Source: Sedimentisphaerales bacterium
GTDB lineage: Bacteria > Planctomycetota > Phycisphaerae > Sedimentisphaerales > Anaerobacaceae
Direction: 5' to 3'
NCBI GenBank assembly: GCA_963708075.1
Contig: OY970194.1
Location: 1,440,001 to 1,504,000, forward strand
Length of the DNA stretch: 64,000 bases
Shown piece after piece: positions 154-34,068 of the stretch. The notes below the pieces were generated by a model. That model worked only from the letters and a program-made list of their open reading frames with translations. It was not told the DNA's origin and searched no databases. Made by a program: the position numbers and the translations under genes. Numbering within the stretch: the first letter of the stretch is position 1; every line of letters begins with the position of its first letter.

Positions 154-1366
<1,213 letters not shown>

Positions 1367-2027: not shown

Positions 2028-2990
2028 TCAGCCGATTTGCCTTCTCTGGAAGAGGGCGACAGCCAGCGCCAGGATGGCCCCGGTGTAACAGAGGGCGTAT
2101 GAGCCGCTGATGAAGATGTAGCTCAGCGGCACCCGGCTGCCTTCGTAAATCGCATCGCTGATCCAGAAAACCTGCAGATTCGGCACGAGGAAACGCCCAA
2201 TCCTGGCCCAAAGATGTGTCTCCGCAAACCTGCCGAAGGCGTAGTCGCTGATCAGGCCCAGGAGGAAGATGCCTACACAGGCGGAGAGGGTCACCATGGT
2301 ATTGAATCGGGTGGAAACCGCCACGGCCAGGGCGGCAATGATCATCGCCGCCAGAAACAGCAGGATCGAGCCATAGATGTCGAGGGCGTGGAGGCCATTT
2401 TCCTTGGGGTTAAACTTCAGGTGCTCATCTATAAAGATGAAGAAGACCATGGCGGCGGTGGCGAGAATCGCCGCAATCACGATGGCCGTGGAGGTGAACT
2501 TCCAGTCGTACATGTAATTGAAGAAGGCGCTGAGCAACGCCGTCGCGACGACAATGATCCCGGCGGCGCCAAGGACGGTCCAGTCGTGCGTGTCCGAGGC
2601 TGTCTCCATGACCCCGTGCCGGATCGCCATCAGCAGGGCGACCGTGCAAATGTAGTGCGCCAGGGCCACGGCCACCATGACCCCGAGGAACTTGGCAATC
2701 AGGAATATCGGACGTTGCACGGGCTTGGTCAGCACCGTCATGATGGTTTTATTTTCCAATTCCACCGAAACCGCCCCGGATGCGGAAAAGATTGCCACGA
2801 ACAAGCTCGTCAAGAAGAGCGTAGAGAGCCCAATTTCACGTAAGAGTTTGTTGTCATCGTCCATCGTGTACATGGCTAACGATGGGCTGATCAGGAAGAG
2901 TAGCAGGGCGATAGAAATGATGACCGCGTAGACGGGTTGTCGCAGTGTCTCGATCAACGTGTTCTTTGCAATTGTCACCAGGGTACGCAT
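2028..2990 (-). CDS. ABC-2-type transporter permease
   Basis: IAKNTLIETLRQP start; ELENKTIMTVLTKPVQRPIFLIAKFLG motif; multiple TM segments. Confidence 0.85.
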   Translation of the reverse strand: MRTLVTIAKNTLIETLRQPVYAVIISIALLLFLISPSLAMYTMDDDNKLLREIGLSTLFLTSLFVAIFSASGAVSVELENKTIMTVLTKPVQRPIFLIAKFLGVMVAVALAHYICTVALLMAIRHGVMETASDTHDWTVLGAAGIIVVATALLSAFFNYMYDWKFTSTAIVIAAILATAAMVFFIFIDEHLKFNPKENGLHALDIYGSILLFLAAMIIAALAVAVSTRFNTMVTLSACVGIFLLGLISDYAFGRFAETHLWARIGRFLVPNLQVFWISDAIYEGSRVPLSYIFISGSYALCYTGAILALAVALFQRRQIG

Positions 2991-3094
2991 GATCTTGTAT
3001 CCGAGACCTCGATTGCTCCAGTGGCGGTCGCTTTCAGGACAGCACTGACGCGTATTTTTTTCATGGTTGTCGCTACACGACGACGATGTCAGGT

Positions 3095-3123
3095 GTTATA
3101 GTGCTGGCCTATCTCTTTGTAAA
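3095..3123 (-). promoter_or_regulatory. sigma70-like promoter for the divergent permease
   Basis: TTTACA-N17-TATAAC on the minus strand. Confidence 0.5.
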
Positions 3124-3194
3124 GGGCTTCGGTCCATTAGTAAGTAGATACTGGGTGGCTCGAATTTTGTTCGCAATCGGGAGTTGAATCGGCA

Positions 3195-5274
3195 ATGACA
3201 ACAACCTCAAAGCGTCCCGAACAGGTGGCCTGGGCGTCTTTGGTCTTGAGCCTGGTTTTCTTTGGCGTGACCTTCTTTCTCGGCCAATGGAGCGGCTTTT
3301 TCGCCGTTTCCGCCGTCGCCTGGCAACTGCTTGCCGCGGCGCTGATCTGGCTCGTCCTGGCGATCCAGTTCCATCAGCGAAGCCTGGCCGAGCAGGAAAA
3401 GCTCGACATGGGCCAGCTTGCCAGGGAGAAAGAATCTTCCACGATTTTCGAGGCGAAGGGGGATCAGCTTGCGTTGCTGGCGGCCGCCCAGCGACGACTG
3501 GAAGTCATCGAGAAATGGTTCCTCCCTATCTTCGCGGGCGTGATCGCCGTTTATGAAATCGGCATCGGCCTCTTTATTCTCCAGACCATTCCGGCGTGGG
3601 CCGACGCCAAAACGCAGCAGCCGCTGGTGGCTGCAATCATCGCGACCTCCGTCGCTTTCGTCAGTTTCCTGCTGTCGCGGTATGCCACGGGCATGGCGGT
3701 GGAGCCGCGATGGAAGCCGCTGCGGGCCGGCGGCAGTTACCTGCTTGGCGTGGCGGTCATCTGTTTTGCCCTCGCGTTGACCCTCGCCGGCGTGCATTTC
3801 CAGTTCTTCACCCCCGTTAGCGTCGTCGGCTTTGTGATCCCCGTTCTGCTGATCGTCCTCGGTATTGAGACGGCTCTCAACATCGTCCTCGATATTTATC
3901 GCCCGCGGCTTAAAGGCCAGTACAGCAGGGCAGCATTCGACAGTCGGCTGCTCGGCATCCTCAATGAGCCCGGCGGGGTATTCCGTAGCGTCGCGGCCGC
4001 CATCGACTATCAATTCGGCTTCAAAGTCTCGCAAACCTGGTTCTATAAGCTCCTGGAGAAGGCCGTCGTGCCGCTGATTCTCTTCTCGGCGATGACGTTG
4101 TACCTGGCCAGCAGCATCCTCGTAGTGGCGCCGAACGAACAGGCCGTCATCGAACGGCTCGGCAATCCGCTCGCCGGCAGTGGCGAGCCTCGCATCGTAG
4201 GGCCCGGCATGTGGCTCAAGTTCCCCTGGCCCATTGACATCGCCTACAAGCACCCGACGAAGCAGGTCATGGAACTGTATATCGGCTACGTGCCCAAGAC
4301 CGCCGAAAAGACCGGACTGGTCATACCCGAGAACCTCCCTGCTCTGGGGCCAGACACACTATAAGGAAGAATACAACCTGCTGGTGGCCAGCGAATATGC
4401 CGGTGAGCAGATGGAGGAAGGGGCCGTCCCGGTCAGTCTGGTCAAGGCCAATATCCCCGTCCAGTACAGGATCAAAGACCTCTACACCTACATTTATCGC
4501 CATAGTCAGCCGGACAGACTCCTGGAGGCTATCTGCTATCGCGAGTTGACCAAATTTGCCGCAAGCGCCAGTGTGGAGGCAGAGGACGCGGGAACGGCAG
4601 GAGCGAGAGTTGAAGTCAATCTCCTCGGCGCCGGCAGGACGCGGGCCAAGGAAGTGCTGGCAAAGAGAATCCAGGAGGCAGCCGATCAGCAGGGGCTGGG
4701 CATTGAGCTCATTTTCCTCGGTGTCCAGGGGATTCATCCCCCGCCGGAGGTCGCCCCGGATTACCAGGCTGTGGCGGCCGCCGTGCAGAAAAGACAAGCG
4801 CTGGTCCTGGAGGCACAGGCCGAACGGAACAGGACGCTCAGCACGCTGATCGGCTCGGTCGCAAGAGCCTACGAGGTGTCCAATCTCGCGGCGGAATATC
4901 AGAGGGCCCGTGAAGACGGCCGCACGGAAGACGCGGAAAAGCTCGGCACGCAGCTCGACACCGCTTTTGCAAACGCCAAGGGCGACATCTTCAGAATTCT
5001 GAGAGAGGCACAGAGTTACGCCTTTGCCAAAGCTGCGCTGGCTAAGGCGACGGCTGATCGCTTCACCGGCCAGCTCAAGGCCTACCGGGCCGCCCCGCGA
5101 ATCTACATGCGACAGCAGCGACTGGCGGTCCTCAAAGAGGCCCTGCGAGGCATTCGAAAGTACATTGTCGTCAGCGACCCGAATAATTCCGAGGTCGTTA
5201 TCGTGGATTTGCAGGATCAAGTCACACCCGACTTGTACAAACTTGGCGGTCTGCCGGAGAACAACGCACAATGA
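3195..5274 (+). CDS. HflK-like SPFH protein with large N-terminal multi-TM domain (indel ~4332)
   Basis: ORFs 3195..4364 and 4234..5274 join; VVAPNEQAVIERLG..GPG..LKFPWPID, VQYRIKD, GIHPPPEVA, AYRAAP. Confidence 0.85.
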
Positions 5275-6170
5275 GAAGACTAGTGATTCCCATCCTTATT
5301 GCCGTAATCTTCCTGATCCTGGCCATCTATCTCGTGGCGTTTCAGGTCCGACAGAGCGAGCTGGCCTTCGTGACAAGATTTGGCCAGCCTGTGCGATCGA
5401 TCACTACGCCGGGCCTCAAGCTCAAGCTGCCGACTCCTATCGAGCGGGTCCACAAGTTCGATTCACGGATGCGGCTGCTCGAAGCGGAGATCAGCGAAAC
5501 GACCACGCGGGGAAGAGTCCCCATCATCATCAACAGCTACGCCGTCTGGCGGATCACCGACCCGCTTCAGTTCAACAACAGTGTCGGCTCCATCGAAAGC
5601 GGCGAGAGCAAGCTGCGAAGCCAGATCAACGACACCCAGAACCGTGTCATCGGCCAGTACACCTTCGCGGAGTTCATCAACAGCGATCCCAACAAGATTC
5701 GGTTCGACGAGATCCAGGCAAAAATGCTTGTCGATCTCGCCCCCCGCGTCGCCAAGGAGTACGGCATCGAGGTCAAGACCCTCGGCATCAAACAGCTCAA
5801 GATCAGCCAGGACAATACGAAAGAGGTGTTTGAGAGAATGAAGGCCGAGCGGAAGAGACGCACGGAGGCGACGATCGCCCTGGGCACCGCCGAAGCCACA
5901 AAGATCCGAACAGACGCCGACGCGATCAAGACGGGATTGCTCGCCGCCGCGGAGGGTCGGGCCAAGGCCATCCAGGGCCGGGGCGACGCCGAAACCGCGA
6001 AGTACCTCGAGAAGATGGAGGAAGACCCCGACTTGGCCATGTTCCTGCGGAATCTGGATGCGCTGCGCACGATGATGGGAGAGCGTTCCACGCTGGTCAT
6101 TCCGACGGATTGTGAGCCGTTCAGCCTGCTGAAGAAGATGCCGTCGCTGAAGACAAATGAGCAGAAATAG
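5271..6170 (+). CDS. hflC: HflC-like SPFH protein
   Basis: Single N-terminal TM; VTRFGQP..PGLKLKLP, FDSR, WRITDP, VFERMKAER, FLRNLDAL. Confidence 0.85.
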   Translation: MRRLVIPILIAVIFLILAIYLVAFQVRQSELAFVTRFGQPVRSITTPGLKLKLPTPIERVHKFDSRMRLLEAEISETTTRGRVPIIINSYAVWRITDPLQFNNSVGSIESGESKLRSQINDTQNRVIGQYTFAEFINSDPNKIRFDEIQAKMLVDLAPRVAKEYGIEVKTLGIKQLKISQDNTKEVFERMKAERKRRTEATIALGTAEATKIRTDADAIKTGLLAAAEGRAKAIQGRGDAETAKYLEKMEEDPDLAMFLRNLDALRTMMGERSTLVIPTDCEPFSLLKKMPSLKTNEQK

Positions 6171-6204
6171 TCGTGTTCCTTGTTGAAAAGGTGTTTGCAG
6201 AACC

Positions 6205-7611
6205 ATGTCGCACGAACACAGACACGATCACGGGCACGAATATCATCATGGGCATGACCACGATGACAGGCACGAACACGATCACGGGCCTGAACACGAG
6301 CACGACCACACAGAGCCGACCGGCGAAGGGAAGCCCCGGCCCGAGGAGCTCGACGCCGCCGGCAGATCGCTCTCGGATGCGCTGCGAATCAGCTTTGCCA
6401 TCCTGAAGGTGATCATGGTCGTACTGGTCGTCGGTTTCCTCGCCTCCGGGTTCCGGACCGTAGAGACCGGGGAGCAGGGCGTTGTCCTGCGTTTTGGCCA
6501 GATCCAAAGGACCAAGGGGCCCGGCTGGGTGTGGGTCTTTCCCTACCCGATCGATGAGCTCATCCGGATTCCCGTCGACAAGCGGATCAATCTGCCGGTC
6601 CGAACATTCTGGTATAAGGAGACCCGGGAAGACATCGAGGGCGCAGGCGTGATTCCGCGAAATCTCCGGGCGGAGAGTCTGGACCCGCTGCAGGAAGGCT
6701 ACTGCCTGACCCGAAGCGAGGATCGCGAATCCGAGGCTATCCCGGCCGTCCAGCTTGGGCCGGCGGCGAACCGCACCCTGGCTCTTGCGCAGCAAAGCGA
6801 TGGAAGCGACTATAGCATCGTCCACACAAAATGGCAGATCAACTACCAGATTCAGAGCATCGATCAGTTCTTCCGAAACGTCTACGTCTCGGAGGTCAAG
6901 CCGGGCCAGGTCTACTTTGATGTGATGACGCAGAGCATCACGCCGATGCTTCGCAGCGTGATCGAAGACGCCATCGTCCGCGCGATGGTGCACTACACAA
7001 TCGATGAGGCCCTCCAGAGCATCGACACGATCCCCGGACGCGTCCAGCAGCTTGCTCAACAGAAATTGGACGACATCGGCAGCGGCATCGTCGTGAAATC
7101 GGTACTCCTGGAGAAGGCGGAATGGCCCAAACAGGTGGACCAGGCGTTTACAGAATCCATTGCCGCCAGTCAGAGGAGCCAGGGGGCCATCACCCAGGCC
7201 CGGACATACGCTGAGAACACGCTCAACGAGGTGGCCGGACTTGTGGCCAGGCAGTTGTACCAGACCCTTGTGGATGGCAACGATAGCGGCGAGCAGATCG
7301 ACGCCCTCTGGTCGCAGGTCGCCGGCGGAGCCAGGGACAGAATCGCGCAGGCCGAGGCCTATCGCACAACGGTCGTCGAAACCGCCAAGGCCAATGCCGA
7401 CTACCTCATGAGTCTGTTGCCGGAGTACCGAAAGCGACCCGAGCTCTTCGCTCAGGGGATTTACCTGGTGGCCATGGAAGAGGTGTTCGCCAACGCTGAC
7501 GAGAAATTCATCATCGAACTGTCCGAGGCGGCCAAAGAGCGACAGGTCAGAATCAACCTCAACCGGGACCAGGTCAAGCCGAAAAAACAGGGACAGTCAA
7601 CGACGAAATAA
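6205..7611 (+). CDS. HflK-like SPFH protein with His-rich N-terminus
   Basis: 15 His in first 35 aa, then TM, GFRTVETGEQGVVLRFG, GPGWVWVFPYPID, LLPEYRKRP. Confidence 0.85.
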   Translation: MSHEHRHDHGHEYHHGHDHDDRHEHDHGPEHEHDHTEPTGEGKPRPEELDAAGRSLSDALRISFAILKVIMVVLVVGFLASGFRTVETGEQGVVLRFGQIQRTKGPGWVWVFPYPIDELIRIPVDKRINLPVRTFWYKETREDIEGAGVIPRNLRAESLDPLQEGYCLTRSEDRESEAIPAVQLGPAANRTLALAQQSDGSDYSIVHTKWQINYQIQSIDQFFRNVYVSEVKPGQVYFDVMTQSITPMLRSVIEDAIVRAMVHYTIDEALQSIDTIPGRVQQLAQQKLDDIGSGIVVKSVLLEKAEWPKQVDQAFTESIAASQRSQGAITQARTYAENTLNEVAGLVARQLYQTLVDGNDSGEQIDALWSQVAGGARDRIAQAEAYRTTVVETAKANADYLMSLLPEYRKRPELFAQGIYLVAMEEVFANADEKFIIELSEAAKERQVRINLNRDQVKPKKQGQSTTK

Positions 7612-7667
7612 TGGGCGATCCGCGTCGCATCGCGGGCCTGATGGGAGTATCGCAAGAGAACTGAACT

Positions 7668-9596
7668 ATGGCTCACCAGCACCTGCACTTTCAAGAGGAT
7701 TTCAGCGCCGAGCAGACCCGCGGCAAGCAGCTTCGCGTCAGCATCGCGATGCTGGCCACGCTGGCCGGCGGCGTGCTGCTGATCAACAGCGGCATCGGGC
7801 GGCTCTTCTATGAGCCCGGAAGCTTCAACGTCGAGATCTTCGCCCTGCTCGGGGCCGTGCTTCTCGGGGCGCCGATCATCATCCATGCGATCAAGAGCCT
7901 CGCGAGGGGTGAATCGCACATGGATGAGCTGGCGGCGCTGGGCATTGTGGCTGCGTTCGCCACGGAAGAGTATGTCGCCGCCGGACTCATCGGCTTTTTC
8001 ATGCTGCTCAGCGAGCTTGTGGAGACGCGAACGGCGCTGGGCGCCCGAGCCTCCATCGAATCGCTGATCCGCCTGACCCCCATACGAGCCAACCTGCTCG
8101 AGCAGGACGGCAGCGAGAGGGAGGTCAAGGTCAGCGAGTTGAGGGCCGGGGATCGCATCCGCGTGCGTCCGGGTGACAACATTCCCGCCGACGGCGAGGT
8201 GGACGACGGCCTGAGCTCCGTCAACGAGGCGACGATCACAGGCGAGTCGTTGCCCGTCGACAAGGTGCCCGGCATGCAGGTCTTCGCCGGCACGAGCAAT
8301 CTTACCGGTGCTCTCGACATTCGCGTGACCAAGGCGGGCGGGGACACGACGCTGGGCAAGGTCCAGTCCCTGATCATCCAGGCCGAGCAGACCAAGATCC
8401 CCATCATGCGGATCATCGACCGCTACATCTCGTGGTATGTCCCGACCATCCTGATGATTGCCGCCATCGTCTGGGTCTTTACGCGGAACATCAACCAGTC
8501 CATCACGATCCTCGTAATTTCCTGTCCCTGCGCATTGATTCTTGCGACGCCCACGGCCATGGTGGCGGCCATTTCCGCCACGGCCCGGCTTGGTGTCCTC
8601 GTCAAGAACGTGGCCGATCTCGAGATCGCCGGCAGGATGACCGCCATGGTGTTCGACAAGACCGGCACCGTCACAACCGGCCGGCTGTATGTCACCCGGC
8701 TCACGCCCGCCGAAGGGGTCGAGCCCGGGGAACTTCTGGCGGAGGCCGCCGCGGCGGAACAGATGAGTAAGCACCCGGCCGCGCGGGCCCTGCAGGAAGT
8801 GGCGAAAGAGGCCGACCTGACGCTTCCCGCCACAAAGGACTTCAAAGAGACGCCCGGTAAAGGCGTCACGGCCACTGTCAACTCGTCGCGAATCCTCGTC
8901 GGCCGCGAGAGCTTCCTGAAGGAGAACGGCATCGATGTCTGCAATATCACCGATCCGCGTCTCCACGAGGAGGAGGGTTTCAGTACCCTGTATGTGGCGA
9001 AGGACTCGCGGTGCATCGGCTGGATCGGCCTGCAGGATAAAACTCGTCCCGAGGCGCAGCAAGCCATCGCGGAGCTGGCGGAGATGGGCATCAAGAGAGT
9101 GACGATGCTGACCGGCGACCGCAGCGAGGTGGCCAATCGCGTCGCCGCCGAGCTGGGCTGCACCGATTACAAAGCCCATTGCCTGCCCCAGGATAAGCTG
9201 GCCATTGTCGAGCAGATCAAGCGGGACGGGCACACCGTCGTGGTTATCGGCGACGGCATCAACGATGCCCCGGCGCTGGCGGCGGGGGATCTGGGCATCG
9301 CCATGGGCGCCGCCGGCAGCGACGTTGCGATCAACTCCGCGTCGATTGCCCTGATGAACGACGATCTGCGCCGTATCCCGTTCCTTGTCCAGGTGTCTCG
9401 CAAGACGCGACGGGTGATCAACCAGAACCTGGCGTTCGGCGTGGCGTTCATTATCATCGGTATCTCGATGTCGAAGTTCGTGCCGCCGGCTGTGGCCGCG
9501 TTCCTGCACTTTGCCAGCTCGCTGGTCGTCGTGTTCAACAGTGCCCGCCTGGTCCGCTTCGGCGAAGACCTCGACCGCGAGCCGCAGGAGGCGTAA
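7668..9596 (+). CDS. P1B-type heavy-metal-translocating ATPase
   Basis: TGES, SCPCALILATP, DKTGT, SKHP, TGD, GDGINDAP motifs; no N-terminal HMA domain. Confidence 0.95.
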   Translation: MAHQHLHFQEDFSAEQTRGKQLRVSIAMLATLAGGVLLINSGIGRLFYEPGSFNVEIFALLGAVLLGAPIIIHAIKSLARGESHMDELAALGIVAAFATEEYVAAGLIGFFMLLSELVETRTALGARASIESLIRLTPIRANLLEQDGSEREVKVSELRAGDRIRVRPGDNIPADGEVDDGLSSVNEATITGESLPVDKVPGMQVFAGTSNLTGALDIRVTKAGGDTTLGKVQSLIIQAEQTKIPIMRIIDRYISWYVPTILMIAAIVWVFTRNINQSITILVISCPCALILATPTAMVAAISATARLGVLVKNVADLEIAGRMTAMVFDKTGTVTTGRLYVTRLTPAEGVEPGELLAEAAAAEQMSKHPAARALQEVAKEADLTLPATKDFKETPGKGVTATVNSSRILVGRESFLKENGIDVCNITDPRLHEEEGFSTLYVAKDSRCIGWIGLQDKTRPEAQQAIAELAEMGIKRVTMLTGDRSEVANRVAAELGCTDYKAHCLPQDKLAIVEQIKRDGHTVVVIGDGINDAPALAAGDLGIAMGAAGSDVAINSASIALMNDDLRRIPFLVQVSRKTRRVINQNLAFGVAFIIIGISMSKFVPPAVAAFLHFASSLVVVFNSARLVRFGEDLDREPQEA

Positions 9597-9601
9597 AGAC
9601 G

Positions 9602-10843
9602 ATGGAAAGCTATGCCGTCGAGACAATCGGGTTGACCAAGGTTTTTTCCGACTGGTGGGGCCGGACCAGGGTCTATGCCGTTGACGACCTCAACCTGCAG
9701 ATTCGGCACAACGAGGTGTTCGGGCTGCTGGGTCCGAACGGCTCAGGCAAGACGACGACTATCAAGATGCTGCTGGGCCTGCTCCATCCGACGAAGGGTC
9801 ACGCATTGCTGCTCGGCGGCCACGGGACCGATCCGAAGATCAACGCCCACATCGGCTTTCTTCCCGAGGAGTCGTACCTGTACCGGTTCCTCAACGCCCG
9901 CGAGACGCTGGATTTCTATGGCCGGCTGTTCGGGCTGGCCCGCGAGGTGCGTCAGATGCGGATCGAGGCCCTGCTGGACATGGTGGGCCTGAAGGCCGTG
10001 GCAAGCCGGCCTGTGGGCACGTACTCCAAGGGCATGGCGAGGCGAATCGGCCTGGCGCAGGCCCTGATCAACGACCCGGACCTGCTGATCCTCGATGAGC
10101 CGACCACCGGCCTCGATCCAATCGGGACACGGCAGATCAAGGACCTCATTCTGAAATTGGCGGAGCGAGGCAAGACCATCCTGCTGTGCAGCCATCTGCT
10201 GGCCGACGTGGAAGACGTGTGTCATCGCATCGCCATCCTCTACGGCGGCAAAGTCCAGGCGCAAGGCCGCGTCAAAGACCTGCTCCAGAAGACGGACAAG
10301 CGGCAAATCGTCACAGACGCCATCAGCGACGCCGCCGTCGAGCGGATAAAGACCGTCCTGAATGGCGAGGGCGTTCAATTTGAGATCTCCTCGCCCATGG
10401 AGCGGCTCGAAACGTTCTTCATCCATACGGTCGCGGAGGCGCAACAGCAAGCCAAGCCGACGAGCGGCGCCGTCAGCACGACCCAGATCGGCGAGTTTCT
10501 CACCGCCGGCGCCCAAAAAGGGAACATTCTCGACAAGCTGGTCGGGGCGCCCGAGCCCGAGCCCACGACGGCGACCCCACAAATGGAGAAAGTGGCCGAG
10601 ACCGAAGTCCCCAAGCGAGAGCGGGACAAGGACGTGCTGCGGGAACTGACAAAATCAACGCCGGCCTCGACCGAGCAAACCGCGAAGACAGAGACGCCTC
10701 GAACGGAGCCTGTCGAGACGAAGGGCGGGGCCGATGCTCAGCGAGTGAAGAAGAAGGTGCTCGATGACCTGGTGGGCCGTCCGGCGCCTCAGGAACCGAA
10801 GGAACAGGGTGAACGGGAAGAGGGAGATTCCGGCCATGCGTAG
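9602..10843 (+). CDS. ABC transporter ATP-binding protein with long low-complexity C-terminal tail
   Basis: GPNGSGKT, YSKGM, LILDEPT, SH switch; ~130-aa E/K/P/T-rich tail. Confidence 0.95.
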   Translation: MESYAVETIGLTKVFSDWWGRTRVYAVDDLNLQIRHNEVFGLLGPNGSGKTTTIKMLLGLLHPTKGHALLLGGHGTDPKINAHIGFLPEESYLYRFLNARETLDFYGRLFGLAREVRQMRIEALLDMVGLKAVASRPVGTYSKGMARRIGLAQALINDPDLLILDEPTTGLDPIGTRQIKDLILKLAERGKTILLCSHLLADVEDVCHRIAILYGGKVQAQGRVKDLLQKTDKRQIVTDAISDAAVERIKTVLNGEGVQFEISSPMERLETFFIHTVAEAQQQAKPTSGAVSTTQIGEFLTAGAQKGNILDKLVGAPEPEPTTATPQMEKVAETEVPKRERDKDVLRELTKSTPASTEQTAKTETPRTEPVETKGGADAQRVKKKVLDDLVGRPAPQEPKEQGEREEGDSGHA

Positions 10844-12209
10844 AATCTGGGCCGTCGCGAGGAATACGATGCGCCAGGCCTTGCGCATGAAGGTCGCCGC
10901 CGTGTTTATCGTCCTGTTGCTGATTCTCCTGCCGATCCTGGGACTGACGGTCACGGGCGACGGCACGTTGAAGGGCCGGCTCCAGACGTTCGTGAGCTAC
11001 GGCTTTTCCCTCACAAGCCTGCTCCTGTCCTTCCTGACGCTCATCGTTTCCATCTACACGATCACCAGCGACATCGAGCATCGCCAGATTTATACCGTCG
11101 TCACGAAACCGATCCGCCGCTCGCATCTGATTGTGGGCAAGCTCCTCGGCGTCGTCACGCTGGATGTCGCCCTGCTGACGTTGTTCACCGGCATCATCTA
11201 CGGAGCGGCCATACTCATGCCGTGGTTTCTCAAGGCCTCGCCGCAGGAGTTGGAGGAGGTTGACAGGCAGTTTTACACGGCCAGGACAAGCCTCGTCCCG
11301 CCCGAGCTCGATGTCAGCAAGGAGGTGGATGCACACTACCAGAAACTGGTGAAGAACGACCAGTTGGACCAGGTCTACCCGAACTACACAAAGCCGGAGA
11401 TCATCAAGCTGATGACGAACCAGAAGCGGCTGGAGAAGCGGGCGGCGGCCGTCGGGCAAAGGCTTCTGTGGGAGTTCAAGAACGTGCGGCCCCTGGACCC
11501 GAACCAGAGCCTGTTCATCCGATTCAAGTACGATGTCTCCGTGACCCCGCCCGACGAGCAGGCATACGGCGACTGGTACATCGGCGACCTGCGTCAGCTC
11601 GGCACCGGGCCGGATATGGCGACGCCGATCTTTCGCACTACCCGCAAGGATGCCGTCCGCAGCTTCCGGGAGATCGAGGTTCCCGGAGCGGCCGTCACCC
11701 CCGACGGGTATCTGGCGGTGGGCTTCGTCAATCCACCCTTGAACGAGACTGTGGTTATCTTCCCGCTCGAGGACGGGCTCGAGGTGCTCTACAAGGCCGA
11801 TACTTTCACGGGCAACTTCATCCGTGCCGCGATTCTCATCCTGCTGCGGCTGATTTTCCTCGCCTGCCTGGGTGCCCTGGCGGGCAGCTTCCTGTCGTTC
11901 CCGGTGGCCATTCTGTTCTGCCTCGTGATCTTCCTGACAGGCACGGTCAGCGGTTTTGTCATGGAATCCTTCGGTGATCTCAGCAAGAACATCGGCGTCA
12001 TCTACACGTACACAGTGAAAGGACTGGTTCAACTATTACCGCAATTTGACAAGAACAACCCCACCACGTTTCTGGTTCCGGCTCGACTGATCAGTTGGAC
12101 GTATGTAGGTAAAGTGGCGTTGTTCATGGTCGGCTTACGGGCGTTCCTGTTGCTGCTTTTTGCCTTGATCATCTTCCGATTCCGTGAGCTGGCCAAGGTG
12201 GTTCTCTGA
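10836..12209 (+). CDS. ABC-2-type permease with large extracytoplasmic loop
   Basis: VARNTMRQALR; DIEHRQIYTVVTKPIRR..GKLLG; ATG overlaps the ATPase stop. Confidence 0.85.
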   Translation: MRRIWAVARNTMRQALRMKVAAVFIVLLLILLPILGLTVTGDGTLKGRLQTFVSYGFSLTSLLLSFLTLIVSIYTITSDIEHRQIYTVVTKPIRRSHLIVGKLLGVVTLDVALLTLFTGIIYGAAILMPWFLKASPQELEEVDRQFYTARTSLVPPELDVSKEVDAHYQKLVKNDQLDQVYPNYTKPEIIKLMTNQKRLEKRAAAVGQRLLWEFKNVRPLDPNQSLFIRFKYDVSVTPPDEQAYGDWYIGDLRQLGTGPDMATPIFRTTRKDAVRSFREIEVPGAAVTPDGYLAVGFVNPPLNETVVIFPLEDGLEVLYKADTFTGNFIRAAILILLRLIFLACLGALAGSFLSFPVAILFCLVIFLTGTVSGFVMESFGDLSKNIGVIYTYTVKGLVQLLPQFDKNNPTTFLVPARLISWTYVGKVALFMVGLRAFLLLLFALIIFRFRELAKVVL

Positions 12210-12227
12210 CGATTGCCGGTGTGAACG

Positions 12228-14066
12228 ATGCGTGGACGAGATTTTGCCATCCTGTTTGTCTGTGTAGTGATCGCCGGGGGCCTGCTGATCGCCGCCGGGA
12301 TGCAGCTTGACCACATCAACAGGCAGCGGGAAACGATGGGCCTCACGATCAATATCGCCACGGAGAACATGCCTCCCGCGATGGCTTTTGCGACTGTGGC
12401 GATGGGAGCCTTCCGGGGTCTGGTCGTCGATATCCTCTGGATGCGGGCCGACAAACTCAAAGAGGAAGGGCAGTTCTTCGACGCCAGGCAGCTTGCCGAG
12501 TGGATCACGATGCTGCAGCCGCGGTTCGCCTCCGTCTGGGAGTTTCACGCCTGGAACATGGCCTATAACATCTCCGTGGCCATTCCCGCCTCCCAGCCCG
12601 AACAACGATGGCGCTGGGTGAAGAACGGTTTCGAGCTGCTGCGCGACCAGGGAATCCCGCTGAATCCCAAGGCGATCCCGCTTTATCGTGAGCTCGGGCG
12701 GATTCTGCAGCACAAGATCGGCGGCATCTCGGACGACGCCCACGAGTACTACAAGCTACAGATGGTCGAGGCGTTGGAGCCGCTGCTGCAATCGCAGGAC
12801 AACGGGTTCGGCCGCGAGTCCAACGAGTTTTACGAGGCGATGATCCAGGCGCCGATGGCGTGGCCCCAGGTGGAGCGGGATCCAAACGTCGCACCCTTTA
12901 TTGAGGCCTTGCGGGTTGCAGATGAGGCGTTCGCCAAGGCCGACAGCAAGGAATTTGTGGCGAACTACCTGTCTTTGCGTCAGAACCCGCAACGGTTCAA
13001 GCCCGAGGCCATCAAGATCATCGATGCGTTCCGAGGCAGCCCGGCCCTCAAGAGGTTCGACATCTTTGCCAAGGCCTACCAGCTCCGGCGTGAGTGGAAG
13101 CTCGACCCGGAGCTGATGCAGGAAGTGAACAAGATGTACGGCCCAATCGATTTCAGCGATCCGAACCAGCATTTCCCCATGGACTGGCGGAATGCCGATA
13201 GTCATGCAATCTACTGGGCGGTCAAAGCGCTGCAGGTTCTGGCCCAGAAGGAAGGCCGCAAGATTGAGATAAACGAGACGAACACGGACCGCATCGTCGT
13301 GCACAGTCTCCAGAACCTCTTTCGCAACGGCAAGATCACGGTCCTTCAGGGGCCGGCCGAGCCTGTCGGCGAGCCAGGGATGACCGCTGAACCGGTGCAA
13401 CCTCAAACACGCAAGGACATTTTTCTGACGCCGGACCTGCGGATGTTCGACTCGTACGACAAGGCGGCCCGGACCATCATCAAAAAGCACGCGGACGCCG
13501 GCGCAAAGGAGTGGGGCCCATTGGAGTCTCTGCGAACCGGTCATCGCAATATGCTTAAGAACGCCGTCACGTCGTTCTATCAGGCGGGGATCAAAGGGTA
13601 TGCGTTGAGGATCTACAACGAGTTGCGCCAACTGTACCCCAATATCGAGGAGTTCCAGGGATCGCTCGATGAGTATGTGGCGATCCGCTTTCGAGAAGAG
13701 TTGGACGGCTTTGCTATTCAGGATGCCCAGGAGATGATGATCGCGACCTTGATGGAGGCGTACTTCCGTCTTGCCATTCACGAGGATAGTGAAGCGGCGG
13801 CCAGAGAGAAGCTCGCTCAGCAAGCGTACGACTACTACATAGTGAAATACGAAGACCCGAAGTTCAGGATTGACCTGCCGCCGATGCCCGTGTTACGCTA
13901 CATTGCCTTGGGTCAGTTCCTGAATAATGATATGTATCCCGCCTACATACGGGAGGGTTTGTTAGCCCGCATCAAGATCGAGCGGCCCGAGCTTTACAAG
14001 GAAATGGAGCAGACAGAAGAGGTGCTCCGGCTGCGAATGGAGCAGTCTCAGGAACCACAGGGATAG
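12228..14066 (+). CDS. Membrane-anchored helical/TPR-like protein (PilG-like, ABC-associated)
   Basis: N-terminal TM; GAFRGLVVDILWMRA..WITMLQPRF..WNMAYNISV..GIPLNP..LYRELG; family call is my recognition only. Confidence 0.6.
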   Translation: MRGRDFAILFVCVVIAGGLLIAAGMQLDHINRQRETMGLTINIATENMPPAMAFATVAMGAFRGLVVDILWMRADKLKEEGQFFDARQLAEWITMLQPRFASVWEFHAWNMAYNISVAIPASQPEQRWRWVKNGFELLRDQGIPLNPKAIPLYRELGRILQHKIGGISDDAHEYYKLQMVEALEPLLQSQDNGFGRESNEFYEAMIQAPMAWPQVERDPNVAPFIEALRVADEAFAKADSKEFVANYLSLRQNPQRFKPEAIKIIDAFRGSPALKRFDIFAKAYQLRREWKLDPELMQEVNKMYGPIDFSDPNQHFPMDWRNADSHAIYWAVKALQVLAQKEGRKIEINETNTDRIVVHSLQNLFRNGKITVLQGPAEPVGEPGMTAEPVQPQTRKDIFLTPDLRMFDSYDKAARTIIKKHADAGAKEWGPLESLRTGHRNMLKNAVTSFYQAGIKGYALRIYNELRQLYPNIEEFQGSLDEYVAIRFREELDGFAIQDAQEMMIATLMEAYFRLAIHEDSEAAAREKLAQQAYDYYIVKYEDPKFRIDLPPMPVLRYIALGQFLNNDMYPAYIREGLLARIKIERPELYKEMEQTEEVLRLRMEQSQEPQG

Positions 14067-14080: not shown

Positions 14081-16300
14081 ATGGAAGAGGCAGTTCTGGA
14101 GAAGTTGACACCGTCGCAGAGGCGGGCTGTCTGTCATCGGGAAGGACCGCTGTTGGTTCTCGCGGGTCCGGGCAGCGGCAAGACACGCGTGATTACCCAT
14201 CGCATCGCGGCCCTGATCGACTGGGGCGTCCGACCATCCAATATTTGCGCTATCACCTTCACCAACAAAGCGGCACAGGAAATGCAAGAGCGTCACATTC
14301 AACTCGCATACCACCTAGGTCCACTGGTCCACAGGGATCTCGAGGATGCTCGTGAACAAGCCGTAACGGCGAAGGGTCGCGCGAGTGCATACATCAGCAC
14401 TTTCCACTCGCTTTGCGTGCGAATTCTCCGCATCTACGCCGACGCGGCCGGCGTCCATCCGAATTTCAGCATCTACGATGAATCCGACCAGACGAAGTGT
14501 GTCAAGAAGGCGATCAGCGACTGCGACCTTGACGTGACGAACTTCCCGCCCGGCCGAATCCTGGAAGCCATCTCGACCCTGAAGAACAAGCTCGTTGACG
14601 CCGATACCTTCCGGACCCAGGCCGAGGATTTCTTCTCGCAGACCCTTGTGCAGGTGTACGCCCGCTACCAGCAGATCCTTACGGATCGAAACGGGCTCGA
14701 CTTCGATGACCTGCTGATGAAAGCGGCGCTGCTGCTGGAGAACAACTCGGCCGTCTGCCGGGAGTTGTCGGAACGGTTCAAGTTCCTGCTCATTGACGAG
14801 TACCAGGACACGAACCACGCTCAATACAGACTCACCAAGGCTCTCGTGTCCTCCCACAACAACATCTGTGCCGTGGGCGATCCGGATCAGTCGATCTACC
14901 GCTGGCGCGGAGCCGATACCCGCAACATCCTGGCCTTCGAGAAGGACTGGCCCAACGCCACAGTGGTCAAACTGGAGGAGAATTTCCGGAGCACCGCCGA
15001 GGTCTTGCGCATCGCCGACCGGCTCATCGCCCGCAACCGGAATCGCAAGGAAAAGGTCCTTGTGCCCGTCAAATCGCACAAGGGCGAGGTCCGGATCGAC
15101 AACTATGAGGATGAGAACGCGGAGGCCGGCGCCGTCGCCCGGCAGGTCCAGAGACTTGTGGCCTCAGGCGTTTCAGGCACCGAGATCGCCGTGTTCTACC
15201 GCGTGAACGCAATGAGCCGTGCGATCGAAGAGGCCTTCATCCGCGAGAAGGTCCTTTACCAGGTGGTCCGCGGCGTCGAGTTCTACAATCGAAAGGAAAT
15301 CCGCGATGTTCTTGCTTATCTCAAAGTGATCGTGAACCCGGCGGATGAGGTCGCCCTGCAGCGGATCATCAACACGCCGGCGCGGGGGATCGGAAAAGTC
15401 ACCGTCGACCGAGCCAGTATGCACGCTGCCCGCAACCGGATGTCATTGTTCGATGCGATCAGGAACGTGGACCAGATCGCCGGCCTCTCCGGCGCCGTGA
15501 AAGCGAAGCTGGCCGCCTTCGTGCAGATGATCGATGGGCTCGCACAGAATACGGAGGGCAAGGTCGCGCCGTTGGTCGAGCGGGTGTTCAAGGTCTCGGG
15601 GCTGGAGAAGACGCTCAAGGGCGCGGGGCTCGAAGGCGAAGATGCCGTGGAGAACATCGAGCAGTTGATCAACACGGCCGCCGCCTACGACCAGCAGGCC
15701 CAGAGCCCCTCCCTGGTGGACTACCTGCAGCAGATCGCCCTCTTCAGCGACGCCGACGCTTACGATGCATCGGGCGAGCGGGTCGCCCTGATGACGCTCC
15801 ACGCCGCCAAAGGACTCGAATTCGAGAACGTCTTCATCATTGGATTGGAGCACGGAATTCTCCCGCATGAGCGGTCCGGCGAAGACGGCGACGACGTCGA
15901 AGAGGAGCGAAGGCTCCTGTTCGTCGGCGTCACACGGGCCAAGACGAATCTCTATATCAGCTACGCCAGGTATCGGACGGTCCGGGGCCAGACGCTGCGA
16001 ACGATTCCCTCGCAGTTCCTCTTCGAGCTTGGCCCCGGTCTGATGCATTCCTCTGTTGAGCAGGAAGACCGTCCCCAGGCGGAGCCGGCCTTCCCGAAAG
16101 CCAGGCCTGGCCCTTCCCCCTCCAACGGCACGAAGGCTCCCCAGTTTGTCCCCGGCCAACTCGTCCGGCACAAGACCTTTGGTCTCGGCCGGGTCAGAAA
16201 ATTCGTGGACATGGGGGCCAACAGCGTCGTCGTCATTTCTTTCAATAGTGGACAGACCAAATCCCTGCTGCTACAATACGCCGACCTTGTACGAGTGTAG
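14081..16300 (+). CDS. pcrA: UvrD/PcrA ATP-dependent DNA helicase
   Basis: AGPGSGKT, TFTNKAA, DEYQD, GDPDQSIY, TLHAAKGLEF, EERRL..VGVTRA; C-terminal Tudor-like domain. Confidence 0.93.
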   Translation: MEEAVLEKLTPSQRRAVCHREGPLLVLAGPGSGKTRVITHRIAALIDWGVRPSNICAITFTNKAAQEMQERHIQLAYHLGPLVHRDLEDAREQAVTAKGRASAYISTFHSLCVRILRIYADAAGVHPNFSIYDESDQTKCVKKAISDCDLDVTNFPPGRILEAISTLKNKLVDADTFRTQAEDFFSQTLVQVYARYQQILTDRNGLDFDDLLMKAALLLENNSAVCRELSERFKFLLIDEYQDTNHAQYRLTKALVSSHNNICAVGDPDQSIYRWRGADTRNILAFEKDWPNATVVKLEENFRSTAEVLRIADRLIARNRNRKEKVLVPVKSHKGEVRIDNYEDENAEAGAVARQVQRLVASGVSGTEIAVFYRVNAMSRAIEEAFIREKVLYQVVRGVEFYNRKEIRDVLAYLKVIVNPADEVALQRIINTPARGIGKVTVDRASMHAARNRMSLFDAIRNVDQIAGLSGAVKAKLAAFVQMIDGLAQNTEGKVAPLVERVFKVSGLEKTLKGAGLEGEDAVENIEQLINTAAAYDQQAQSPSLVDYLQQIALFSDADAYDASGERVALMTLHAAKGLEFENVFIIGLEHGILPHERSGEDGDDVEEERRLLFVGVTRAKTNLYISYARYRTVRGQTLRTIPSQFLFELGPGLMHSSVEQEDRPQAEPAFPKARPGPSPSNGTKAPQFVPGQLVRHKTFGLGRVRKFVDMGANSVVVISFNSGQTKSLLLQYADLVRV

Positions 16301-24634: not shown

Positions 24635-25288
24635 CTATCCCTGAATTCCCATCGGTATGGCAGCGGCTTTTTCGTTGGCTTCGCGGAGGACCTGTGCATT
24701 GTGACTGGCTTGCTGCTCCAGCAGGCATTGCTGTAAGAGCGACAGAGACTCTTCATGCCGTCCGAGCAGGCCGAGGGCCGTGGCCATGTTGGCTCGGTAT
24801 TTCTTGTTGTCCGGCTGGAGGCCCGCCGCCTGCGTGAAACGTTGGAGTGCGTTCGCGTACTCTCTGCGGATCATCAGGCACATTCCCAGGTTGTTCAGCA
24901 ACACGGGATCCTCCGGCCGGATCTGAAGCGCCGCGGTCAACACCAGAACCGCTTCGTTGGCTCGCCCCTGACGCATCAGCAACTCCGCCAGATGGTTGTA
25001 TGCCGGCATGAACTGCGGATACTCCTGGATGCACCGTTTCAGGACGAACTCGCATTGCCGGTCCTTGCCCTGCGTCGCAAGGATGCCTGCCATCGTGAAA
25101 AGAGTCTTCTGCGTGGGAGGGCGATCCTGTCGCATCTCGAACTCAGGAGGCGGGTCTTTCATTTTGGACGTGTACCTTGCATCGTACCGCTGCTGTCCCT
25201 CGCAGCCGCCAAGCATCATCCCCGCCAAGTACACCAGAGCCGCCAGGAATCCGGATACCTCCCGACCAGTAGACCGCCAATCGATCAT
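24635..25288 (-). CDS. TadD-like TPR lipoprotein (putative pilotin)
   Basis: MLGGC lipobox, TPR repeats (LNNLGMCL); end of the tad operon. Confidence 0.7.
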   Translation of the reverse strand: MIDWRSTGREVSGFLAALVYLAGMMLGGCEGQQRYDARYTSKMKDPPPEFEMRQDRPPTQKTLFTMAGILATQGKDRQCEFVLKRCIQEYPQFMPAYNHLAELLMRQGRANEAVLVLTAALQIRPEDPVLLNNLGMCLMIRREYANALQRFTQAAGLQPDNKKYRANMATALGLLGRHEESLSLLQQCLLEQQASHNAQVLREANEKAAAIPMGIQG

Positions 25289-25779
25289 TCTGTGATTCTC
25301 CCGGTGCCCGACGTTCTCCTCGTCGTGTACCTCTTGTCGGTGGATTCAATGAGAATCATGACCACGCGCTCCGAAGGCAAGCCCGTCCCGCCTGGCATTC
25401 CATCGGAAATGCTCATCTGGTCGGCGCTGACGCCGGCCTGCTTGAGTTGCTGAACGGCCTGGGCCACTCTCGCGTCGTACAACTCCGCAGGGGTATCTCC
25501 CCGCCGGATGTTCAGCGAACCCGGGTGCTTCGCAAAGTGCCTGGCCAGCACGGCGAGATCTCGCTGTCCAAGCTTGTTGAGCGTCTCGCCGTCCTGAACG
25601 AAGTGGTACGGATACAGGGTGTGTTGCGCGACGATCGCATTCTCCAGCTCGATGTTGTTGAGCACGTTGACCAGCTCCATGTCAAGCTTCTTCCCCGCCT
25701 CCTGCTTGCTGACCCGCTCCTCGCATCCAACCAGGAGACTGCACACAACACACATTGTCACGACATCTGCGAACTTCAT
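25285..25779 (-). CDS. Tad-associated lipoprotein (CpaD/RcpB-like position)
   Basis: LLVGC lipobox; YPYHF..LNKLG..L pattern; lies between tadC and tadD. Confidence 0.55.
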   Translation of the reverse strand: MKFADVVTMCVVCSLLVGCEERVSKQEAGKKLDMELVNVLNNIELENAIVAQHTLYPYHFVQDGETLNKLGQRDLAVLARHFAKHPGSLNIRRGDTPAELYDARVAQAVQQLKQAGVSADQMSISDGMPGGTGLPSERVVMILIESTDKRYTTRRTSGTGRITE

Positions 25780-25827
25780 GAAATGTCCTCCTTGCACCCA
25801 ACGTAATTACACTGGCCTGACCGGTCC

Positions 25828-26775
25828 TTAGCCCTGGAACAGCAGGGTACGCGCGATTTTGACGACGGCGGGTCCCACGGTTACCATGATCACCGCCGGA
25901 AAGATGAACAGCACCATCGGGATAATCAACTTCACCGCCATCCTCTCGGCTCCCTCCTCCGCCATCAATCTTCGTTCGTCCCGCATGGAGGCGGCGAATT
26001 CGCGAAGGGCTACCGCCACGCTCGTGCCGAACCGTTCGCTTTGCACCAGGATGGCGGCCAGAGAGGAGAGCTGATCGGCCCCCGTACGCATGGCCATGTT
26101 CCGCATGGCGTCGGTCCTGCTGGCGCCCAGATGAATCTCGAAGTTGCTCAGGTCCATCGCGGTGGCCAGGACCGGACTGACATGGTGCACCTCACCGGCC
26201 ACCATGTTCCACGCCATGTCCAATCCGATTCCCGAGGAAACACAGATTTCCAGGAGATCCACCACGTCGGGCAGGTAATGGCGAATCTCCTCCCGGCGCT
26301 TCTTCTCCTTGGTCAGCACGATTAGATTGGGCACGAAGAATGGGGCGATGCCGCCGAGAGAGATCATCCACATTTTTTGAATCATGCTCTTGTCGGTGGG
26401 CATCACCAGGATCGCCGTGCCCACAAGTCCGCCGAGAAACAGCAGGATCTTGATTCCGGTGTACACGGCCGGGGCGTTGCGGCCCAGGTACCCGGCGCGG
26501 ATCAACTGCTCCCACAGGTTCGTGCTGGCATGGCCGTGGGAGACGAAGTTGCCGACCTGCTCGAGCAGGCGCAGGAGCCGGGATTTCCTTACGGCCTCGC
26601 TCGCTGCGGCGTGGCCCGCCATCGCCAGTCTCCTGCGCACTACGCTTTTGTGCTGCTCGCGAAAAAAGAGGATGGCGCTGCCGATGAAGATCACCGAAAC
26701 GAAGCAGAGCAGCGCGACAAGCATTTCCGGCCTGCCGCCGTATACGTCGATATACCTGACAATGTCTTTTAGCAT
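25828..26775 (-). CDS. tadC: Tad pilus inner-membrane platform protein
   Basis: LPDVVDLLEICVSSGIGLD, QSERFGTS, KLIIPMVLFIFP. Confidence 0.92.
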   Translation of the reverse strand: MLKDIVRYIDVYGGRPEMLVALLCFVSVIFIGSAILFFREQHKSVVRRRLAMAGHAAASEAVRKSRLLRLLEQVGNFVSHGHASTNLWEQLIRAGYLGRNAPAVYTGIKILLFLGGLVGTAILVMPTDKSMIQKMWMISLGGIAPFFVPNLIVLTKEKKRREEIRHYLPDVVDLLEICVSSGIGLDMAWNMVAGEVHHVSPVLATAMDLSNFEIHLGASRTDAMRNMAMRTGADQLSSLAAILVQSERFGTSVAVALREFAASMRDERRLMAEEGAERMAVKLIIPMVLFIFPAVIMVTVGPAVVKIARTLLFQG

Positions 26776-26793
26776 CGTGTGCCGGGCCTCAAA

Positions 26794-27771
26794 TCAATAC
26801 CGTAACACCGAGAGCCTTCTCATCAACCAGACGCCAAACAAAACGCTTACGACCGTGGCCACCAGCATGTAGCGGCCGGTCCACTCTTTGTAGAAGATCT
26901 GCATGTATGTTGGGGCCACGATGTTCAGGATAATGAACAGCAGGAATGGCAAAGCAACGAGAATGCGCTTGCTCAACTGGGTCTGCGCCGTAAGCACACG
27001 GACCCGGCGGTGCAGCCGCATGCGGGATCGCATCACGGAGGCCAGGGTATCCATCAGTTCCGCGAGGTTGCCGCCACTGTTCATCTGGATCCCCACGGCC
27101 GTGGCGAACAACTTCAGGTCCACGTTGTCGCATGTGGCCGCCACTCGCTGGATGGAGTCCTGCAGATCCAGCCCAAGAGACTGCTCCTGGCAGACCTCGC
27201 CGAAGATGCTGCCGAGCGGGTCGCCCACTTCCTCCGCAATCAACTGAAAAGCGCCGATGAGCGGGTGGCCTGCGCGAAGAGCCCTTGCGGCAATCCCGAG
27301 GGAGTCGACAAATTGCCGCTCGAACAGGGAGACCCGCGTGGCAATCCGCCGTTCCGTCATTATCCAGAAGATCGAGATTACCACGGCCGCCCCGGCCAGG
27401 CCGACCCACGTACCCATGCCCGTCATGACCGCTGTTGCCACGGCCAGAGACGCCACAGCCAGCACGCCGAGAAAGACCATAGGCGCCGGGATCTTCCATC
27501 CGGCATCGGCCCTCAATTTCTCAAGCCGGGAAAACAGGGTCTTCTTCTCCGCCCGATCCGTCTCGCTCCGATCCTTGTACTCCTCGCGCCAGAGTTGCAG
27601 TGCCTGTGACCTCTGGGTATCCGCATCGCCGATGCCCAGCCGTTTCCGCACCTGCCTCTGCCGTCTCACATACTGGATAAACCACAGGGCTACGCAGATA
27701 CTCCACGTAGAGAGAACCAGCACGAAAACCGATGTCATCAAGATCGTGTTGAACAGTTCCTGAGTATTCAT
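26794..27771 (-). CDS. tadB: Tad pilus inner-membrane platform protein
   Basis: ARALRAGH, GGNLAE, VRVLTAQ. Confidence 0.92.
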   Translation of the reverse strand: MNTQELFNTILMTSVFVLVLSTWSICVALWFIQYVRRQRQVRKRLGIGDADTQRSQALQLWREEYKDRSETDRAEKKTLFSRLEKLRADAGWKIPAPMVFLGVLAVASLAVATAVMTGMGTWVGLAGAAVVISIFWIMTERRIATRVSLFERQFVDSLGIAARALRAGHPLIGAFQLIAEEVGDPLGSIFGEVCQEQSLGLDLQDSIQRVAATCDNVDLKLFATAVGIQMNSGGNLAELMDTLASVMRSRMRLHRRVRVLTAQTQLSKRILVALPFLLFIILNIVAPTYMQIFYKEWTGRYMLVATVVSVLFGVWLMRRLSVLRY

Positions 27772-27845
27772 AGGTCAATTCCCATGTCGCAACCAGTCCA
27801 AGCGGAATCCCTGGCGTTTCCGTGCCCTCGCCGGCGAATCGCTGC

Positions 27846-29261: not shown

Positions 29262-29275
29262 TACGTGTTTGCGTT

Positions 29276-30418: not shown

Positions 30419-30434
30419 CGCCAGATTCCTCGTG

Positions 30435-31973: not shown

Positions 31974-32056
31974 AAGTCACCCCTCCATGAATAAAATCGT
32001 GTCGTGAAGGCGGCAGGCATGGGCGTCCACGATGCTCTACCCGCCCATACGGTCCT

Positions 32057-32993
32057 TCACTGGTTTCTCCCAATCTTCTCATCCTGTGGCGGGAATTCTT
32101 CCACCCCAACCTCTGCCCCGCGGATCACTTTGACAATCCAAGGCGGTTTCGGCGGGGCCGGCGCAACCATATTCGCATCGTCCGGCTCCACGTAGGCGAG
32201 AACCGTCTCGGCCGGCTCGCTGGGGACAGGCTCGTCCGGCACCAGGCCAAGGGCCCTGCGCAGACGCTCGTCCGTGACGAGCGGCCCCTGCGGATCGGAC
32301 TGCTCCTGTTCTTCACGCGGACTACGGATCGTCAGGGTGATCGTGCCGCGTTCGCCGACCATCTGCAGGATTCCCGCCTGCTCATACGTGGCCAGCAGGT
32401 TGACCTTGACCATCCCGGTCGTGCCGGCGCCGGAAGGCGGGACTTTGATTTTCGCCCACTCCTGCACGTTCGACGCCGGATCTTCGGGCTCATCTCCCAG
32501 GCTCCAAACCTGTATCGCCGTGAACAGGGTCCCCGAGACGGACTTGGTCTCCGAGGAGCCACCGTCGCGCAGCGTAGCGAACACCTGGACGTGGCAACCT
32601 CCATGGAGCAAGCCGCCACTGACAGAGCGCGACGGCACGGTTACCGTGGCTACAGTCATGCCGGGCGGAAGCATGTACATCTTTTCCGTCAGGCTCCCGC
32701 GCCGCCAGGGAGGATTCGGTGAGGACCTGGCCCTTCATGAGGGGAACGAGCAAGTACCGCCCTATGGCCTGAGTCGGGTCAATCAGGCATCCGCGGGGCA
32801 AAGCGGGCATCGGGACCGGCTCTCGCCTGACGCTCTCGGCCGTCAGGCAGGTCGCAGCCGGCAGATCGCTCTGCACTACGAGAACCTGCGCCATTGCGGC
32901 CCCGGGCCGAATCTTCAAGCCCTTTACGACCAGGGCCGCCGAGCCTGCCGCCAATACACCCAAGACCGTCAGTATGACAACTGCCAATTTCAT
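32057..32993 (-). CDS. cpaB: CpaB/RcpC SAF-domain protein (indel ~32698)
   Basis: N-terminal TM and SAF-like region (VLVVQSDLPAA..AIGR..KGQVL) join LPPGM..GGLL..GTITLTIRS. Confidence 0.75.
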
Positions 32994-34040: not shown

Positions 34041-34068
34041 GCGATTCCCGGGAAAACAAGGTGATACG

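Follow-up and report, generated by a model that had tools for sequence, protein, structure and literature searches.

A 64,000-nucleotide (nt) window of a Sedimentisphaerales bacterium genome (assembly GCA_963708075.1, contig OY970194.1, forward-strand positions 1,440,001 to 1,504,000; coordinates below count from the first letter of this window) contains an operon at 2028–14066 that encodes three SPFH proteins, a P1B ATPase, an ABC exporter and a protein of no named family. We scanned its translated open reading frames (ORFs) with Pfam and NCBIfam/TIGR profiles and measured the gaps between neighbouring genes, which are −4, 34, 56, 5, −8 and 18 nt along the seven plus-strand genes. The first three genes, hereafter K1, C and K2, all match Pfam Band_7. 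K1 (3195–5274) combines a predicted CDF-fold membrane domain and an extra transmembrane (TM) helix with an HflK-type SPFH domain and coiled coil; C (5271–6170, 299 amino acids (aa)) is an HflC-type SPFH protein, by TIGR01932 and tree position, with one N-terminal TM helix; and K2 (6205–7611, 468 aa) is HflK-type, with a His-rich N-terminal tail preceding its single TM helix. They are followed by the P1B ATPase (7668–9596, 642 aa; hereafter the pump), an ABC ATPase (9602–10843, 413 aa) identified by ABC_tran, Walker A/B, a signature-like YSKG and an H-loop, the ABC-2 type permease perm1 (10836–12209, 457 aa), assigned from a weak Pfam ABC2 match and hydropathy and bearing a hydrophilic loop of ~190 aa, and X (12228–14066, 612 aa), which its model and fold searches describe as N-terminally anchored, all-helical and TPR-like. 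A second ABC-2 type permease, perm2 (2028–2990, minus strand, 320 aa; Pfam ABC2_membrane_2, 28.2 bits), is divergent. The initial annotation, made from the letters alone, had described a packed operon with a divergent permease, and every gene lies where it was placed, with family scans in agreement.

The operon is real and conserved. K1 was matched in 41 of 41 relatives (one through its SPFH part alone) and in 27 of 28 sampled Phycisphaerae, a near-universal occurrence that points to a housekeeping role, as opposed to a mobile resistance island. At the level of the order, where 20 of the 40 relatives' loci were chosen across families, 17 hold all eight genes, two stop at a contig edge and one has X elsewhere. 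A phylum sample of 40 further loci, half strong and half weak among 77 matches, includes 19 with all eight genes, 10 of these with the pump shifted upstream of perm2; one lacks perm2, one is cut off, nine hold the SPFH trio and pump only, one holds the trio alone (L076), three combine the trio with an intact CDF but lack a pump (one of these lies close to the end of its contig), and one encodes a pump–HflK fusion. K1-type fusions, counted as matches starting before profile position 170, occur in 73 of 301 phylum genomes, many of which had supplied the profile alignment. From the other end, 46 of 80 X-centred loci had 9 kb upstream, and the whole run was present in 45, which are near relatives and not independent.

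These arrangements separate the operon into two modules, A (K1, C, K2 and pump) and B (ABC ATPase, perm1, perm2 and X). Module A occurs by itself in Proteobacteria, on plasmids of Klebsiella aerogenes, Paraburkholderia and Rhizobium, with one of these four-gene cores adjoining a zinc ABC importer and a PCu(A)C chaperone, and both modules can occur in one genome on different contigs (L097, L205). Module B is much the commoner of the two and occurs on its own in many Planctomycetota. Around X in 20 loci, mostly from genomes without K1, perm1 is adjacent in 20, the ABC gene in 19 and perm2 in 10, and the trio is present in none. In such stand-alone loci perm2 usually adjoins the ABC gene, the spot that is filled by module A here, and in all 20 order-level loci it adjoins K1; because module A sits exactly between perm2 and the ABC gene, a single insertion explains the arrangement. 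Each of the extended-type proteins K1, C and K2 falls into a single clade (support 95, 98 and 98), so the two modules were probably joined once and kept.

In the window K1 occupies two frames, 3195–4364 and 4234–5274, and not the single ORF first described, with the break near 4332. The K1 profile joins the two halves at positions 372/373, relatives are mostly single open frames of 650–710 aa, and one base at 4332 is missing in a contig of an independent run (one contig, depth 4). The nearby tyrS (209–1381 and 829–1179, minus strand) is also in two frames, each matching tRNA-synt_1b, which itself suggests assembly indels. Together these point to an assembly error as the likely cause of the K1 break; given the open relatives, the independent contig and the split tyrS, we judged a true pseudogene unlikely.

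K1 is polytopic, and C and K2 each have a single N-terminal anchor, as in HflK/HflC. The structure predicted for a same-genus K1 (72% identical; mean predicted local distance difference test score 85) places a six-helix CDF membrane fold in residues ~1–245. Model residues 10–244 align with SLC30A10 at Z 16.5 and a root-mean-square deviation of 2.5 Å over 175 residues, and the model matches ZnT3 at Z 15.2, with a ferritin-like background at Z 11. Profile–profile comparison (hhalign) of the membrane part with CDFs gave a probability of 96.8%, and Pfam Cation_efflux matched 3 of 45 K1 relatives; Foldseek with the whole K1 model returned SPFH matches alone, and an Atlas search of the membrane part returned no usable match. 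The earlier label 'multi-TM HflK-like' overlooked this fold. CDF site A (H/D-x3-D in TM2 and H-x3-D in TM5) reads Q/A/Y/V in the window K1. Of 45 aligned relatives, the three matched by Cation_efflux keep its HD–HD set, which is lost in the 42 others, the window and four plasmid copies, in an alignment whose most distant rows are less certain. K1 has the appearance of a natural pseudo-transporter.

The SPFH (Band 7) domain and a long coiled coil were confirmed for the whole trio. C passes the HflC equivalog TIGR01932 by 0.4 bit (134.8 against a cut-off of 134.4) and falls on the HflC side of the SPFH tree; K2 (107) and the C-terminal piece of K1 (71.5) both lie below the TIGR01933 cut-off of 159.4. 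The His tail of K2 is variable, with at least four His in 38 of 92 K2 proteins. The initial annotation was right that the window holds no ftsH, as the sole M41 match of the genome is at C1:2886032, 1.4 Mb off. It had also raised the possibility of a separate canonical set, and an hflK–hflC pair, 36% and 29% identical to E. coli HflK and HflC, indeed lies 2.6 Mb away. Its argument from the absent neighbour fails, however: in E. coli itself, ftsH is not found within 10 kb of hflKC in either direction, so with a separate pair and one ftsH in the genome the missing nearby gene carries no weight. The E. coli HflK/HflC cage of 24 alternating subunits (PMC12048511) serves as the template for the cage proposed below; residue 191 of translated E. 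coli HflK is Ala, compared with the FtsH-contact Arg191 cited in the same source, a numbering that could not be mapped. Another scaffold operon in the window (55997–59220, minus strand) encodes two NfeD proteins, one long and one short, and a FloA flotillin consecutively.

The pump scores 565.7 bits against TIGR01525 (cut-off 346.25) and has the P1B motifs DKTGT, TGES and, in M4, CPC, together with QN and a His in M6 (HFASS); it lacks an N-terminal metal-binding domain. The M5/M6 ligands are YN and MxxSS in P1B-1 pumps (CopA), and K and DG in P1B-2 pumps (ZntA/CadA); the window pump, with QN and HFASS, falls outside both types and in a separate clade. In a quick, midpoint-rooted tree, from which a truncated ORF, a near-duplicate and KdpB had been dropped beforehand, 48 pumps of trio-bearing genomes group into a single clade (Shimodaira–Hasegawa-like approximate likelihood-ratio test 100) apart from nine other P1B pumps, which include E. 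coli CopA and ZntA and a Listeria CadA-like pump. The core-module members of this tree are plasmid pumps. Among extended pumps, CPC is retained by 25 of 29 and the M6 His by 27 of 29; among core pumps the counts are 9 of 13 and 9 of 12. Four module-clade pumps that are unlinked from a trio and lack CPC (L210, L211, L213 and L226) have an intact DKTGT, and in three of them the M6 His is Gln. Modelling the pump and K1 residues 1–312 as a complex gave scores of 0.10 and 0.09 (mark, 0.32), which are counted neither way.

Three architectures stand ahead of the same C and K2: a dead CDF–HflK protein with a separate pump, as in the window and most loci; an intact CDF–HflK protein without a pump in the cluster (L090, L095 and L099); and a P1B–HflK fusion followed by HflC and HflK (L102:5042–9880). 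Searches with the pump as query gave no match in two of these intact-CDF genomes (both 90% complete) and only a distant P1B in the third; with completeness of 90–92% across the three, the pump counts there as undetected rather than missing. A metal transporter at the first position in all three architectures suggests that the client of the cage is repeatedly a metal transporter, and the association between SPFH genes and a metal pump anticipated in the initial annotation extends, in these three forms, across phyla. Open frames of 979–1013 aa with an SPFH match in three further genomes (G146, G149 and G190) possibly encode the same P1B–HflK fusion.

The system had been put forward as a candidate undescribed machine, but its core corresponds to the Pseudomonas aeruginosa PA2439–PA2434 (hmtA) locus, for which expression data and Zur binding are published. 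That locus has the same order, with three SPFH genes (HflK-like, HflC and SPFH) and then a P1B ATPase, and the published list of its genes includes no ABC module (PMC4542158). Core-module C shares 67% identity with one P. aeruginosa HflC, which is 23% identical to E. coli HflC and joins the core clade in the tree (support 100); this ties module A indirectly to the hmtA locus. Expression of PA2434–2439 is reported to be 5.6- to 14.4-fold higher in a znuA mutant (PMC4542158), zinc depletion to raise the locus proteins, significantly for PA2438 and PA2439 only (PMC11761036), and Zur to bind the PA2439 promoter only with zinc (PMC8531726). Deletion of a three-SPFH operon in PA14, PaFlo5-7, gave ~20% less biofilm (PMC13086221, in whose main text 'ATPase' and 'hmtA' do not occur). 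By gene counts, not by sequence, PaFlo5-7 is probably the same locus, in which case a triple deletion has been published as well. The available portions of the P. aeruginosa accounts note no CDF-fold domain and propose no pump cage. Our literature searches, in which subscription journals are poorly covered, found no paper proposing an SPFH cage for a pump or noting the CDF domain, and none on this operon type among the matches listed for SPFH/HflK with a P1B ATPase. The core is known yet unexplained; what is new is the CDF pseudo-transporter subunit and the recruited ABC module.

X has no Pfam family match, and an Atlas search gave unnamed clusters only. Its model is a helical solenoid with top structural matches mostly to TPR proteins at Z 11–12, below the tool's trust level for helical repeats, leaving X without a specific fold match; two short homologues give weak TPR_17 matches. 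The TPR label first given to X thus has no Pfam match behind it. The closest named homologues of X are from Sedimentisphaerales or Phycisphaerae. Profiles of GldA and GldF match module B weakly, and NCBIfam profiles named none of 12 module B homologues. Two type IV pilus clusters include module B homologues: one in Ca. Manganitrophus, with prepilin, ABC, permease, X, PilZ, STN and PilM, and one at a second locus (L190), with a secretin and PilM. Pilus genes were seen at 2 of the 21 stand-alone module B loci examined, and the source genome has 69 prepilin-motif ORFs. Literature searches found nothing pairing pilG/pilH/pilI with TPR and nothing on an iron responsive element with a Planctomycet ABC transporter. 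On a plasmid of Ca. Manganitrophus (L236:8301–24771, CP114554.1), module B sits in a pilus-like cluster that adjoins genes for a PepSY protein and a TonB-dependent receptor. A compact module B with a 270-aa X, one family, is present at four loci (L188, L189, L191 and L207), at the first two of which it precedes an 810-aa membrane protein. The window itself holds a Tad/Flp pilus cluster at 24635–36201, with a TPR protein, two T2SSF proteins, an AAA_31 protein, a secretin, RcpC/CpaB, an A24 peptidase and a TadE/G-like protein.

We favour, at a probability of roughly 50%, an explanation in which K1, C and K2 form a cage that has the P1B pump as its client rather than FtsH, with zinc or a similar metal exported into the chamber. 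It draws on gene anatomy, folds, motifs, linkage and clades, from which we infer cage assembly, pump residence, export and metal loading. The three proteins would assemble into an HflK/HflC-like periplasmic cage in which C alternates with K-type subunits and K1 and K2 share the K positions. The pump would reside in this cage and carry a divalent metal, zinc or one like it, out of the cytoplasm into the chamber, and the CDF-fold domain of K1, its transport lost, would be the membrane dock left once the P1B pump took over. Where present, the His tail of K2 may act as a cytoplasmic metal trap that substitutes for the missing N-terminal domain of the pump. The chamber would concentrate exported metal so that periplasmic or secreted proteins are loaded under metal scarcity. 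CDFs export metal from the cytoplasm, and because they are what takes the pump's place, export is the favoured direction. Module B would be a separately evolved exporter module, recruited once and co-expressed.

The initial annotation had proposed that the SPFH cage encloses both a metal pump and an exporter. Linkage, the pump's own clade and the separate hflK–hflC pair argue for the first part; as to the second, the ABC exporter belongs to a distinct module, frequently present without the trio. Physical residence of module B inside the cage is accordingly a tentative and somewhat doubtful proposal. Rather unlikely is a single eight-protein machine, in which a cage docked by the dead CDF encloses the pump and a pilus-type ABC exporter; if true, exported proteins would be released and metal-loaded in one closed periplasmic chamber.

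Several observations weigh against a pump cage. At 5 of the 40 phylum-sample loci, all of the same class, the trio and module B remain together with the pump elsewhere, and at L076 the trio has neither pump nor module B. The K2 His tail is absent from 54 of 92 K2 proteins, which rules it out as an essential part. The fused L102 pump sits immediately outside the module clade, and the intact-CDF K1 proteins branch apart from the dead-CDF K1 clade in their SPFH part, so the three architectures may be parallel inventions and not one series. Four of the five displaced pumps, the unlinked ones named above, have VPA, VPA, TPG and CPS in place of CPC, and these proteins may move something other than a transition metal; more generally, the motifs of the pump, as read from sequence, do not fix its metal. 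In P. aeruginosa, hmtA mRNA is reported as not repressed by zinc (PMC8531726), Zur is said not to bind for hmtA (PMC10393844), and HmtA is called a Zn/Cu importer (PMC10393844 and PMC8456098).

This last point leads to a distinctly unlikely alternative, that the same cage serves uptake by gathering periplasmic Zn/Cu and feeding an inward-working HmtA-type pump. It would fit the raised cell metal and sensitivity on HmtA overexpression, as cited in PMC10393844 and PMC8456098, the induction of the locus by zinc shortage and its binding by Zur, and the plasmid locus that adjoins a zinc ABC importer. The review that cites the import, however, calls it unconfirmed (PMC10393844). Because the K2 His tail comes ahead of the first TM helix, its predicted location is the cytoplasm, and the substitute for the pump is a CDF, a member of an exporter family. 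Under the favoured export cage, delivery of metal into an enclosed periplasmic chamber could be mistaken for uptake, which bears on the importer claim for HmtA, and would account for induction by zinc shortage.

Two further alternatives assign the cage to other clients. It may have been taken over by module B, housing the ABC exporter and X for export or maturation of proteins such as pilins, with the pump as an accessory. The single clades of extended-type K1, C and K2, the persistence of the trio with module B when the pump is upstream (10 of 40) or away (5 of 40), the pilus-cluster homologues and the prepilin-motif ORFs all agree with this proposal, which we nevertheless consider clearly improbable: the trio is in 0 of 20 stand-alone module B loci, X was matched in 228 of 301 phylum genomes against 73 with K1-type fusions, one genome has the modules on separate contigs, pilus genes are as rare at stand-alone loci as stated above, and a single insertion suffices to place module A between perm2 and the ABC gene. 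Very doubtful, in turn, is a second FtsH cage controlling the turnover of metal transporters, with the pump as substrate and not resident. FtsH is a zinc protease, present once in the genome, hflKC need not neighbour ftsH, and C lies just over the HflC equivalog cut-off. Against this stand the separate pair nearer to E. coli HflK/HflC, and a transporter covalently fused to a cage subunit, which suits residence better than substrate supply. Tobramycin sensitivity, moreover, is described in PMC13086221 for the hflKC mutant and is not among the effects given there for the PaFlo5-7 mutant.

Between perm2 and K1, the shared intergenic region holds a putative sigma-70-like promoter facing perm2 (3095–3123, minus strand; TTTACA, 17 nt, TATAAC), read by eye. 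The shared motif recurs in several relatives, and a consensus scanner did not list it. A Zur box was considered here and set aside, because its TGTTATA motif fits better as the −10 element of the perm2 promoter; no conserved Zur palindrome was seen by eye across 20 intergenic regions of relatives. An ArgA-like acetyltransferase (1569–2024) and a PcrA/UvrD helicase (14081–16300), the latter beginning 14 nt past X, flank the operon in most order-level loci.

For the roles of bacterial SPFH cages beyond FtsH, the present case is one in which gene fusion and transporter swapping name the candidate client. The core occurs in P. aeruginosa, where a probable triple mutant has been published, with no metal test listed in the available part of that report.

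Among known systems, Myxococcus PilGHI and Geobacter XapABCD are pilus-associated ABC modules. As generally described, they would resemble module B in make-up, with an ABC ATPase, permeases of the ABC-2 type and a TPR-like protein bearing an anchor, a set also comparable with GldA/GldF, but the operon studied here contains no pilus gene. CDF/ZnT/SLC30 transporters (PDB 9KVX and 9JJ1) have the same membrane fold as that predicted for K1 residues 1–245, with a cytoplasmic domain where K1 has its SPFH subunit, and site A is lost in K1. Mycobacterial PacL1–CtpC (10.1101/2021.10.01.462712) offers a likeness in organization, in that a scaffold with a His motif stabilizes a co-encoded P1B pump in membrane microdomains; PacL1, however, is a small DUF1490 protein whose platforms are described as flotillin-independent, whereas the scaffold here is SPFH. 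The E. coli HflK/HflC–FtsH cage (PDB 7VHP, 7VHQ, 7WI3 and 9CZ2) has the SPFH fold and the K/C division in common with the trio, which differs from it in having three subunit types, a polytopic K1 with a predicted CDF fold, separate clades and linkage to a metal transporter.

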